Shown here in pieces: positions 32,101-35,100 of a DNA stretch of 64,000 nt. The notes below the pieces were generated by a model. The model searched no databases. It was not told the origin of the DNA and saw only the letters and a program-made list of their open reading frames with translations. Positions within the stretch are counted from its first letter, which is position 1. Each line of letters begins with the position of its first letter. Location: the NCBI GenBank assembly GCA_035084275.1, contig CM068765.1, forward strand, positions 3,596,001-3,660,000, given 5' to 3'. The position numbers and the translations under genes were made by a program. The DNA comes from Hydrolagus colliei (Eukaryota).

Positions 32101-35100
32101 GCCCTCGCCCAGTTAAACTTTTAATGCTACTGTTTCCCTGAACTTTTAATTTAGAAGTTTCACACGTAGGGACACCCCTGTGCGGGAAGATGAGGTGATT
32201 GGCTTATCCGCAGTTTGACCTTCCCTGGGCTACACAGTGCAGCATTTTGTCCTTTACATTATCTAATTTCTTGTTTCTTTCAATTTCCCATGTTGGTCTT
32301 TATATATAACGATAACAATTGGAAACGAAATGATTTTTAACATCAAGGTGGGACAGGACTGTTGAGCTCATTGATCTGAAAGGTGTTTCTTAGGAAAGAG
32401 GATATTTAACTGGTGATTCTCTTAATAGTGAGGACAGGTGATTTCCACTGGTGAGGACGTTTAAATTGGAGGAGTGCAACTGATACTGTAAAAATATGAT
32501 TCAATTCCGAATTAGACTAATATCTGAACTGCACACTTTCGGAGATTCAGCTTCCACGTTCTTTATTTCAAGAGCATCTGATGTGAGGAAACACTGGGCG
32601 ATAAGCAGTTTTCAATGTCCTAATATTTTACCGGTTTCTTTCAGAGATCTTATGTCCTGGATAAATGGAATCCGTGGGTTAGTGTCTTCTGAGGAATTGG
32701 CTAAGGATGTAACTGGAGCTGAAGCCTTACTGGAAAGACATCAGGTAATGGGACATTGGATACGTTTGCTTTCATGGTTGGTTCATAAGGTTGCTCTCAT
32801 TTACAGCTATTGAGTAATGGATCTTAAATAACTTGCTGCATTTTATGCCTGAATATTGATCCTTTACCTTGTTAAATTTAACTGGAGAAATAATTTTAAC
32901 AAGGAGAAAAATGTTTTTTTTAATATATATGTTTAGAGAAGTTTGTCATTCATGTGAGATTGTTTTAAAATTCAGACCATTTAACATAATATTAAATTCC
33001 TGGGTGAGCATTACTGACATTTCCAACATTCATTCTCTCCTCTTGGTGTTGATAAGCCACTTAAGTGGGTTTGCTTGTATTTTTAAAGAGAAATCCTTTT
33101 CCCTAATCCTTGTTCACTTTCACCTACAGGAGCATTATTATTAATTATTATATTTATTATTACAGGAGCATCGAACGGAAATTGATGCCAGAGCTGGAAC
33201 TTTTCAGGCTTTCGAACAATTTGGGCATCAGTTGCTGGCTCGGGGGCACTACGCTTGCCCAGAAATCCGGGACAAGTTGGACATCTTGGAGCGGGAGCGG
33301 GCAGATCTGGAGAAGGCCTGGATCCAGCGCAGGATGATGTTGGATCAGTGTCTCGAGCTACAGGTAATGAGAGGCTGGAGGAACTTGTCAAAGCAAAGGC
33401 GTCCATCTCCGCCATCCCCTGGCTGCTTGCGACTCGCCACTCGTTATTGCAGTGGTGACACGGCATGTGCTTTTGTTTCTTCGGCAGCTGTTTAGCCGTG
33501 ATTGTGAGCAGGCTGAGAACTGGATGGGGGCACGTGAGGCCTTCCTGGCCAGTGACGACAAAGGCGATTCACTGGATAGCGTGGAAGCCCTCATCAAGAA
33601 ACACGAGGATTTCGATAAAGCTATTACCGTCCAGGTAAAGTGATTAATGTGCACACTGCGGTTCTGTTCACTAATCTAGGTTTATTTGGCCAGAGCATTG
33701 ATGTGGAGTCCTGCAGCTCAGTGGTTAGAGCCTTACAGAGTGAGACATGTGTTCAAATCAGGCAGGCCAGGGCAAAACCGTAATCAAGTTTCCTAACTCC
33801 ACACGCCTAATAGTAATTCCACCCCACCCAAAAAAGACACAATAATAAAATTGGTCATTTCAATCCATGACTGTTTGTGGGGAGGCTGCTGTGTGCAATT
33901 GGCTGCCGTGTTTCACCCACAAATATGCAGTCAATTCACTTTACAGTATATTCTGGGAAAAGCTTTGAGACGTTTAGAAGACGTGAAAAGTGCTATACAA
34001 AATGCAAGGATTATTATTAAGTAACATCAACGTATTGACCTCAGGCCTTTTCTAATCGCAGCAGATTGGTTTATTGTACTCAAAGCTCTGTTGCATAAGA
34101 GATGAATTAATATTTGATGGTTGGCAGTGTTTTGGATTGACATTAGCCAGCTGATGTGATGCTGTATGTCATGTTCCTGTAGAGTCATATAATTGCTCTG
34201 AAAAGCACGACAGTGATCTTTGTAGACTTTCCGAAGAGTGTAGTTTTGCCATTCTGATGGATCTGCAGGATATTGCGTCTGTGTAGCATTGACCAGAAGG
34301 TGGAATTTAGAAACCTGTGTGTGTGTATATATATATATATAATTCTAGTGAATGGAAATAACAAACCCAAATTGAACACAATAGAATTTATGAGCAATTC
34401 CACCAAGAATGAGCCGGGTGTGGTGGTAATCCCAGATAATCCCAGCCATTTATAAATGCCGTTGACGAGATTTATTTTGACCGCGCAATGCTTCAGAGAG
34501 GTGTCGTTTATGTCACCGTTCTAACTTGTGACTTTCCCTGTAATAGGAGGAGAAGATTGCTGCTCTGCAGTCATTTGCTGATCAGCTGATTGCTGCTGAG
34601 AACTACGCCAAGGGTGATATTTCAAACCGTCGCAATGAGGTGCTAGACAGGTACACAAGAGTCTGTGTGGGGTGGGAGGTGGGTGCAGGTTGCGGGCAGT
34701 GGCCTTGTAATCATTCTGAGAATGATCTGACTGTAACACTCGGGTTTAACATTCACCTGCACAGACCCAAATGAGTTGAAATCATCCATATGATTCTAAG
34801 GCTGTGGTTAGTTAACCAAGCTCTCCTACCCTTGAGCTTCTCCCTTGTCACTACGCTCACAAATAAAGGGCTGGGCACTTCTGCAGAGGAAGGTGGCTAA
34901 GTGCATAATGATAAATATAGCCTGAGATTAGAGCCTAATGCACATATTGTGAAAGCTTTTTTTCCTCCAAAAAAATTGTTTTAATATCCAGTATTTTGTA
35001 AAGAAAAACTCACGATTCTCAAACCATGGACTGGATCCACCCTCAGGAGTTTTTTTCTTGTTGGGGAGAAATTCTGAAAGAATGCAGTGTTTTAAGTGTC

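Follow-up and report, generated by a model that had tools for sequence, protein, structure and literature searches.

In canine merle, a SINE lies in PMEL at an intron/exon boundary, with a 15-bp duplication that includes the acceptor, as described in PMC7349775. For NF1, PMC3219598 presents de novo Alu and poly(T) insertions, and a poly(T) insertion of about 120 bp is read there as a severely truncated element. Closely spaced acceptors are treated in PMC2018619, which deals with MID-class alternative acceptors 13-39 nt apart and with pseudo-acceptors upstream of constitutive sites. In the birth of an ATP2A1 intron, as related in PMC3265369, one duplication gives rise to functional splice signals without altering the protein. 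Here we describe a duplicated acceptor in SPTAN1, the gene for alpha-II spectrin, located in a window of 64,000 nt (the whole stretch of DNA analysed). On a slight balance of probability, a bare (ATT)n SINE tail duplicated 11 nt over this acceptor and survived because the tail supplied a branch point and a T-rich tract.

The duplicated acceptor and its host gene

The gene model of SPTAN1 was refined by hand and omits two short alternative-looking exons. The features needed to describe the acceptor are given below.

14122..51337, + strand: coding region of SPTAN1 (alpha-II spectrin), made up of 51 GT-AG exons, 2,386 aa
32645..32744, + strand: upstream exon, ending in LLERHQ, with its donor GT at 32745
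33101..33107, + strand: old branch-point candidate CCCTAAT (A33106), 4/6 U2 pairs
33108..33127, + strand: old polypyrimidine tract, 16/20 pyrimidines, 8 T
33125..33135, + strand: copy 1 of the 11-nt duplication, holding the proximal AG 33128-33129
33136..33160, + strand: (ATT)n-like insert of 25 nt, in phase with both junctions, 12 T in -20 to -3
33139..33145, + strand: predicted new branch point TATTAAT (A33144), 6/6 U2 pairs, including the in-frame TAA 33142-33144
33161..33171, + strand: copy 2 of the 11-nt duplication, holding the distal AG 33164-33165 needed for full-length protein
33166..33363, + strand: 198-nt exon, EHRTEID to CLELQ, 85-89% identity to the best vertebrate SPTAN1 matches

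The sequence TACAGGAGCAT is present twice, at 33125-33135 and 33161-33171, with 11/11 identity. The two copies are separated by TATTATTAATTATTATATTTATTAT (33136-33160), a 25-nt (ATT)n-like spacer, so that the total insertion amounts to 36 nt (11-nt duplication plus 25-nt A/T insert). The first-pass annotation had noticed this repeat around an A/T-only insert and had taken it for an 11-bp duplication spanning the intron/exon junction; the repeat lies where it was placed, and the insertion is real. Also present are the CTAAT (33103-33107) and the pyrimidine tract (33108-33127) which it had seen upstream of the proximal AG. As it had further claimed, use of the proximal AG adds 36 nt with an in-frame stop, at codon 1307 of our gene model, and full-length spectrin requires the distal AG, with which the 2,386-aa frame remains open across all 51 exons.

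Direct repeats of at least 8 nt around a spacer of at least 88% A/T were found nine times in 864 kb of contig C32, and the SPTAN1 spacer is the sole ATT-periodic one of the nine (0.83; next 0.50). A search with the exact insert sequence returned one copy, at the SPTAN1 site. Of the two AGs, the proximal is most likely ancestral. P0121, the nearest ORF from outside (96%), has no ATT-derived run and reads SLTLALGTLQ before the position of the proximal AG, sharing S-L-x-L with SPTAN1 at the proximal-AG spacing. Since 3 of 62 ORFs tie at 3/8 identities, P0121 gives only a weak hint that the proximal AG, or an empty allele, is ancestral.

The locus is present as a single copy in a 1.0-Gb genome (one match per search, one search having scored 8 candidates). 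The open 51-exon frame together with this single match rules out a pseudogene or a redundant paralogue. In mice, loss of alpha-II spectrin is embryonic lethal, according to the account in PMC8439443. The frame of the gene model would be preserved, with a loss of 66 aa, if the 198-nt exon 33166-33363 were skipped. Short SPTAN1-like matches at 27175-27237 and 46130-46150 are probably alternative exons or microexons. At 28864-28923, a 36-nt exon is preceded by a strong AG|GT (10.9 bits), located 24 nt upstream of its acceptor and possibly an alternative or recursive site. A neighbouring gene occupies the minus strand at 52200-63800, tail-to-tail with SPTAN1, and its ORFs suggest that it may be DYNC2I2/WDR34.

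An artefact of assembly, for which a look at the raw reads had been proposed, was rejected, as contigs from three organisms carry the insert. Contigs were taken from 8 of 12 listed runs. The insert was bridged without gap in four of these eight, namely X1 and X5 (organism A), X6 (organism B) and X7 (organism C); X1 and X5 come from two studies, one of which is possibly that of the source sample. Run X9 covers the site with a short right flank, and X8, X10 and X12 do not bridge it. A deletion or an empty allele, which the first-pass annotation had expected to be sought in relatives, was found in none of the eight runs, and no change in length was detected in the four bridging contigs from the three organisms, contigs being prone to drop rare variants. 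As the insert is common to organisms A, B and C, the event must be older than these species. For organism B, 17 substitutions relative to the window are listed over about 1,040 nt (a divergence of about 1.6%), one of which, A>T at 33159, falls inside the insert. At 33406-33412, the window lacks a 3-nt insertion found in most runs, those of organism A included. The window haplotype therefore differs from X1/X5 at this position, as it does at three single bases.

Choice between the two acceptors

Both AGs were scored with a matrix built from the other 49 acceptors of SPTAN1 (positions -23 to +1), in which the branch point is ignored. The proximal AG reached 11.3 bits, a value exceeded by 8 of the real sites, and the distal AG 8.7 bits, which is the median (25/49 higher). 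The proximal site is thus ahead by 2.6 bits. Just 3 of the 49 real acceptors have, 13-60 nt upstream, an AG that scores higher than their own, and just 1 has such an AG of at least 8 bits. The proximal acceptor had been called the stronger-looking of the two; this is correct over positions -23 to +1, but not as regards the match to a branch point. Organism B carries a single change, the A>T at 33159, that lifts the distal AG from 8.1 to 10.0 bits (40-site matrix). RNA structure that might hide the proximal AG was examined in one fold, run with no control, and no distinct local element appeared.

The insert provides a branch-point candidate of its own, A33144, which is located 15 nt downstream of the proximal AG and 22 nt upstream of the exon, no AG intervening between it and the exon. 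TATTAAT makes all six pairs with the U2 hexamer (two of them G-U), against four of six for CCCTAAT. Complete pairing is reached at just 5 of the 49 real SPTAN1 acceptors. Natural tails of at least 22 nt reach 6/6 pairs in 2 of 44 cases and 5/6 in 11 of 44, and such rarity of complete pairing would be as expected of a survivor of filtering. Crude duplex energies with the same hexamer (-0.5 kcal/mol for the new site, -0.6 kcal/mol for the old one) do not favour the new site. Human branch points peak 20-25 nt from the exon and mostly lie in a zone free of AG, in the data presented in PMC2991248. The predicted A33144 would match this human peak in position.

If U2 bound TATTAAT, 15 nt past the old AG, and branching took place at A33144, the distal AG would be the first one downstream, while the proximal AG would lie upstream of the branch and could not be chosen. 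The preference for the first AG would then be intact, and the claim of the first-pass annotation that distal use opposes this preference is not supported once the candidate within the insert is taken into account. The tail would in addition give the distal AG a T-rich tract. From the letters of the site we predict that the distal AG is very probably the dominant acceptor, and that the putative branch point at A33144 is probably used.

A further acceptor of the same gene (35474) was displaced in like manner by a full SINE.

35140..35164, + strand: stranded strong acceptor, 10.3 bits, whose use adds 309 nt with a stop at codon 1466
35165..35473, + strand: full tRNA-headed SINE, tRNA match 35166-35237, its ATT tail abutting the needed AG 35472-35473

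The needed acceptor after this SINE (AG 35472-35473) scores 1.6 bits, below all 49 others, and has no good branch-point match. Since the acceptor needed at 35474 has the lowest score of all, matrix strength is no predictor of use in SPTAN1. Its poor branch-point match also indicates that tail acceptors can evidently work without a good one, so that the branch step proposed above may be an incomplete explanation.

We then have to consider the in-frame stop. As a rule, nonsense-mediated decay (NMD) acts on transcripts whose stop codon precedes a later exon junction by over 50 nt, and TAA 33142-33144 lies more than 200 nt ahead of the next junction (33363). This distance would suit a switch in which a sizeable and regulated share of splicing goes to the proximal AG and NMD tunes the dose of spectrin, perhaps through repeat length as in merle. 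The proximal site also retains a branch-like motif and a tract, its score is in the top fifth, and no change is listed at 33095-33135 in organisms B or C. However, at a divergence of about 1.6%, zero changes in 40 nt are expected by chance, the four bridging contigs are of one length at the site, and the gene is essential. When natural tails were placed at the site, the proximal product was broken in 483 of 660 phase-free trials (73%) and in 202 of 220 phase-locked trials (92%), the frameshift being partly built into the latter. A broken proximal product is thus the default, and TAA is at the same time the core of the TATTAAT motif, so that the stop needs no regulatory explanation. The lethality of alpha-II spectrin loss makes heavy use of the proximal AG unlikely as well. 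We therefore consider regulation by such a switch unlikely. A small leak to the old AG is plausible, and would be cleared by NMD as a by-product and not as regulation.

Origin of the insert

The genome is rich in a tRNA-headed SINE (Rfam E 6e-8) of about 300 nt, the tail of which is (ATT)n. In 864 kb we counted 376 such tails, with a median length of 14 nt, 31 of them being at least 25 nt long. The 3' end of the SINE aligns with that of an abundant LINE with endonuclease and reverse transcriptase (both by Pfam), which motifs lead us to assign, presumably, to the L2 clade. Young copies of this LINE end in (GTT)n, whereas the partner SINE ends in (ATT)n. The SPTAN1 insert matches the tail of this SINE, and on the motif match a retroposon tail is, on the whole, the likely identity of the 25 nt.

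A single event would have placed the tail in a staggered break; the microhomologies at its junctions would be AT and TA, and the truncation would fall within the tail. The phase of the insert with both junctions would be expected from such microhomology between tail and target. On the 5' side of the tail, no remnant of an element body is separable from the duplication, and AGGA/GGAGC microhomology is all that is present. Target duplications show no excess at SINE tails over controls, and a long clean one (16 bp) was found at 1 of the 376 tails, at the following position.

5539..5870, + strand: complete member of this SINE family, flanked by a perfect 16-bp target duplication and adjoining a GC-rich stretch

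Long duplications are, as this case shows, within the reach of the family. Repeats of at least 11 nt upstream of ATT tracts were found in 7 of 406 cases, against 4% at random positions. Two of the seven are clean target duplications (SPTAN1 and the 16-bp SINE), the rest being repeats between SINE bodies or tandem repeats. No second tail-only insertion was found in 1.09 Mb. The tail-only insertion put forward in the first-pass annotation is the best candidate for the origin, although the element body is missing and the family seldom makes long duplications.

The rarity of long duplications at SINE tails would suit a product of break repair or slippage, in which a short iterated A/T filler was laid down with no retroposon involved, splicing at the locus being the same. 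The junction of the two 11-nt copies itself reads ATTA, and a few spaced duplications with repeat-like fillers do occur in the C32 block (76707, 300617, 523725). As such repair-type duplications lie nearby, repair is the main rival for the origin, even though we regard it as doubtful. The fillers at these three sites are 10-18 nt long and echo their own flanks, whereas no ATT template flanks the SPTAN1 insert, whose motif is that of the commonest tail. A stepwise course meets a further difficulty, in that a bare 11-nt duplication would presumably have put a frameshifting AG first after the sole branch point.

Two other routes were weighed against the insertion of a bare SINE tail. The insert may derive from a full SINE with a short duplication, the body of which was later deleted between the head AGC and the tail. 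One SINE head variant begins with GGAGC, like the SPTAN1 junction, among 30 loci inspected for the junction 15-mer, about 19 proved to be SINE ends, and the SINE at 35165-35473 is a full-length parallel in the same gene. This course, however, requires two events plus a chance match to the exon start, and the junction 15-mer has just 55 genome matches (control 21), a number as expected if the first tail unit decayed at random; we hold this route to be quite improbable. A subfamily of SINEs with the junction motif at its end was rejected, as the counts fit random decay. Even less probable is a tail from another LINE, for instance of the RTE clade. Duplications made by this clade are typically 10-12 bp long, often with T as their first base and in the vicinity of a T stretch, as characterised in PMC6007223, and the length of 11 and the first base T match that signature. 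The T stretch at SPTAN1 is, however, simply the pyrimidine tract, no duplication-making ATT- or AAT-tailed family was found among the 406 tracts, and there was none at the 50 reverse transcriptase (RT) loci inspected (30, plus 20 chosen from 150 matches).

Some further elements were observed during these searches. Complementary ATT and AAT join SINE ends tail-to-tail at G000:C32:3497470-3497500 and 3454685-3454700. A set of near-identical RT elements (L125-L153, e.g. G000:C40:1.77-1.94 Mb) has intact 1,134-aa frames, many at a tandem spacing of about 6.8 kb, and looks like a young site-specific LINE.

Other SINE sequences lie close to splice sites of SPTAN1. Antisense SINE tails (25967-26029 and 40991-41143) begin about 4 nt past the donors 25966 and 40990, and SINE 3' fragments are found a few bases past a donor (19077-19110) and about 27 nt before an acceptor (24506-24550). 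Together with 35474, 3 of 8 tails in SPTAN1 lie at most 5 nt from a splice site, against about 0.05 expected by a rough estimate made after the fact. One could propose that the (ATT)n tail serves this lineage as a portable 3' splice-site module, that it displaced two SPTAN1 acceptors, that the stop-bound acceptors leak to NMD and set the spectrin dose, and that insertion is coupled to the splice sites of the gene; we attach little probability to this proposal. The tests made outside SPTAN1 did not support the idea that the SINE targets splice sites across the genome. Donor-like sequence was present at 8 tails against 1-5 at other offsets. YAG followed tails in 84 cases, the other offsets giving 67-84. 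For a donor-like context there were 10 matches, few of them exon-like, and 7 in the permuted control. Outside SPTAN1, Pfam revealed no exon adjoining a tail among the 51 acceptor and 6 donor candidates that were long enough, short exons being easily missed by such a search, and the controls gave 1 match in 47.

Comparison with known systems

The SPTAN1 structure is real, rare and explained by known mechanisms. We conclude that the insertion is likely to be fixed, compensated and merle-like, a tolerated accident more than a switch. A compensated insertion was one of the two outcomes envisaged in the first-pass annotation, and it fits a single intact gene with a predicted branch point for the distal AG. 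If this is true, nature has set up at this locus a fixed trial of acceptor choice over 36 nt, in which an A/T tract that is weak but has the better branch point beats a stronger upstream pyrimidine tract in an essential gene. It would also mean that a potentially lethal splice-site insertion can be neutral at once, and that the 3' ends of introns can be rebuilt with the protein unaltered. What is known of retroposons and of splicing is unaltered by this case, comparable events being known as disease or coat-colour alleles. A fixed tail-only duplicated acceptor was not found in the open-access literature, which was searched by topic and not by locus name.

As set out in PMC7349775, merle PMEL resembles SPTAN1 in that the duplication carries the acceptor, the tail serves as pyrimidine tract and a rival AG is present. 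Merle differs, in the same account, by a full antisense SINE with poly(T) that is polymorphic, unstable in length and associated with a phenotype. In SPTAN1, by contrast, only a tail is present; it is a sense (ATT)n, three organisms share it, four contigs show no change in its length, and it holds a branch-point candidate. The NF1 cases in PMC3219598 offer a tail-only insertion, Alu elements inserted into acceptors and clustering in one gene. Those described there are driven by L1, pathogenic, and lead to exon skipping or to the use of cryptic sites, whereas the SPTAN1 insertion is a tolerated one. Like the pairs treated in PMC2018619, the two SPTAN1 AGs, 36 nt apart, have their own tracts, and the upstream AG of such a pair can precede the branch. 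The SPTAN1 pair may belong to either of the two classes presented there, and it would differ in having arisen in one step by duplication. Finally, the ATP2A1 duplication, in the form given in PMC3265369, produced a new intron, whereas that of SPTAN1 lengthened an existing intron by 36 nt.
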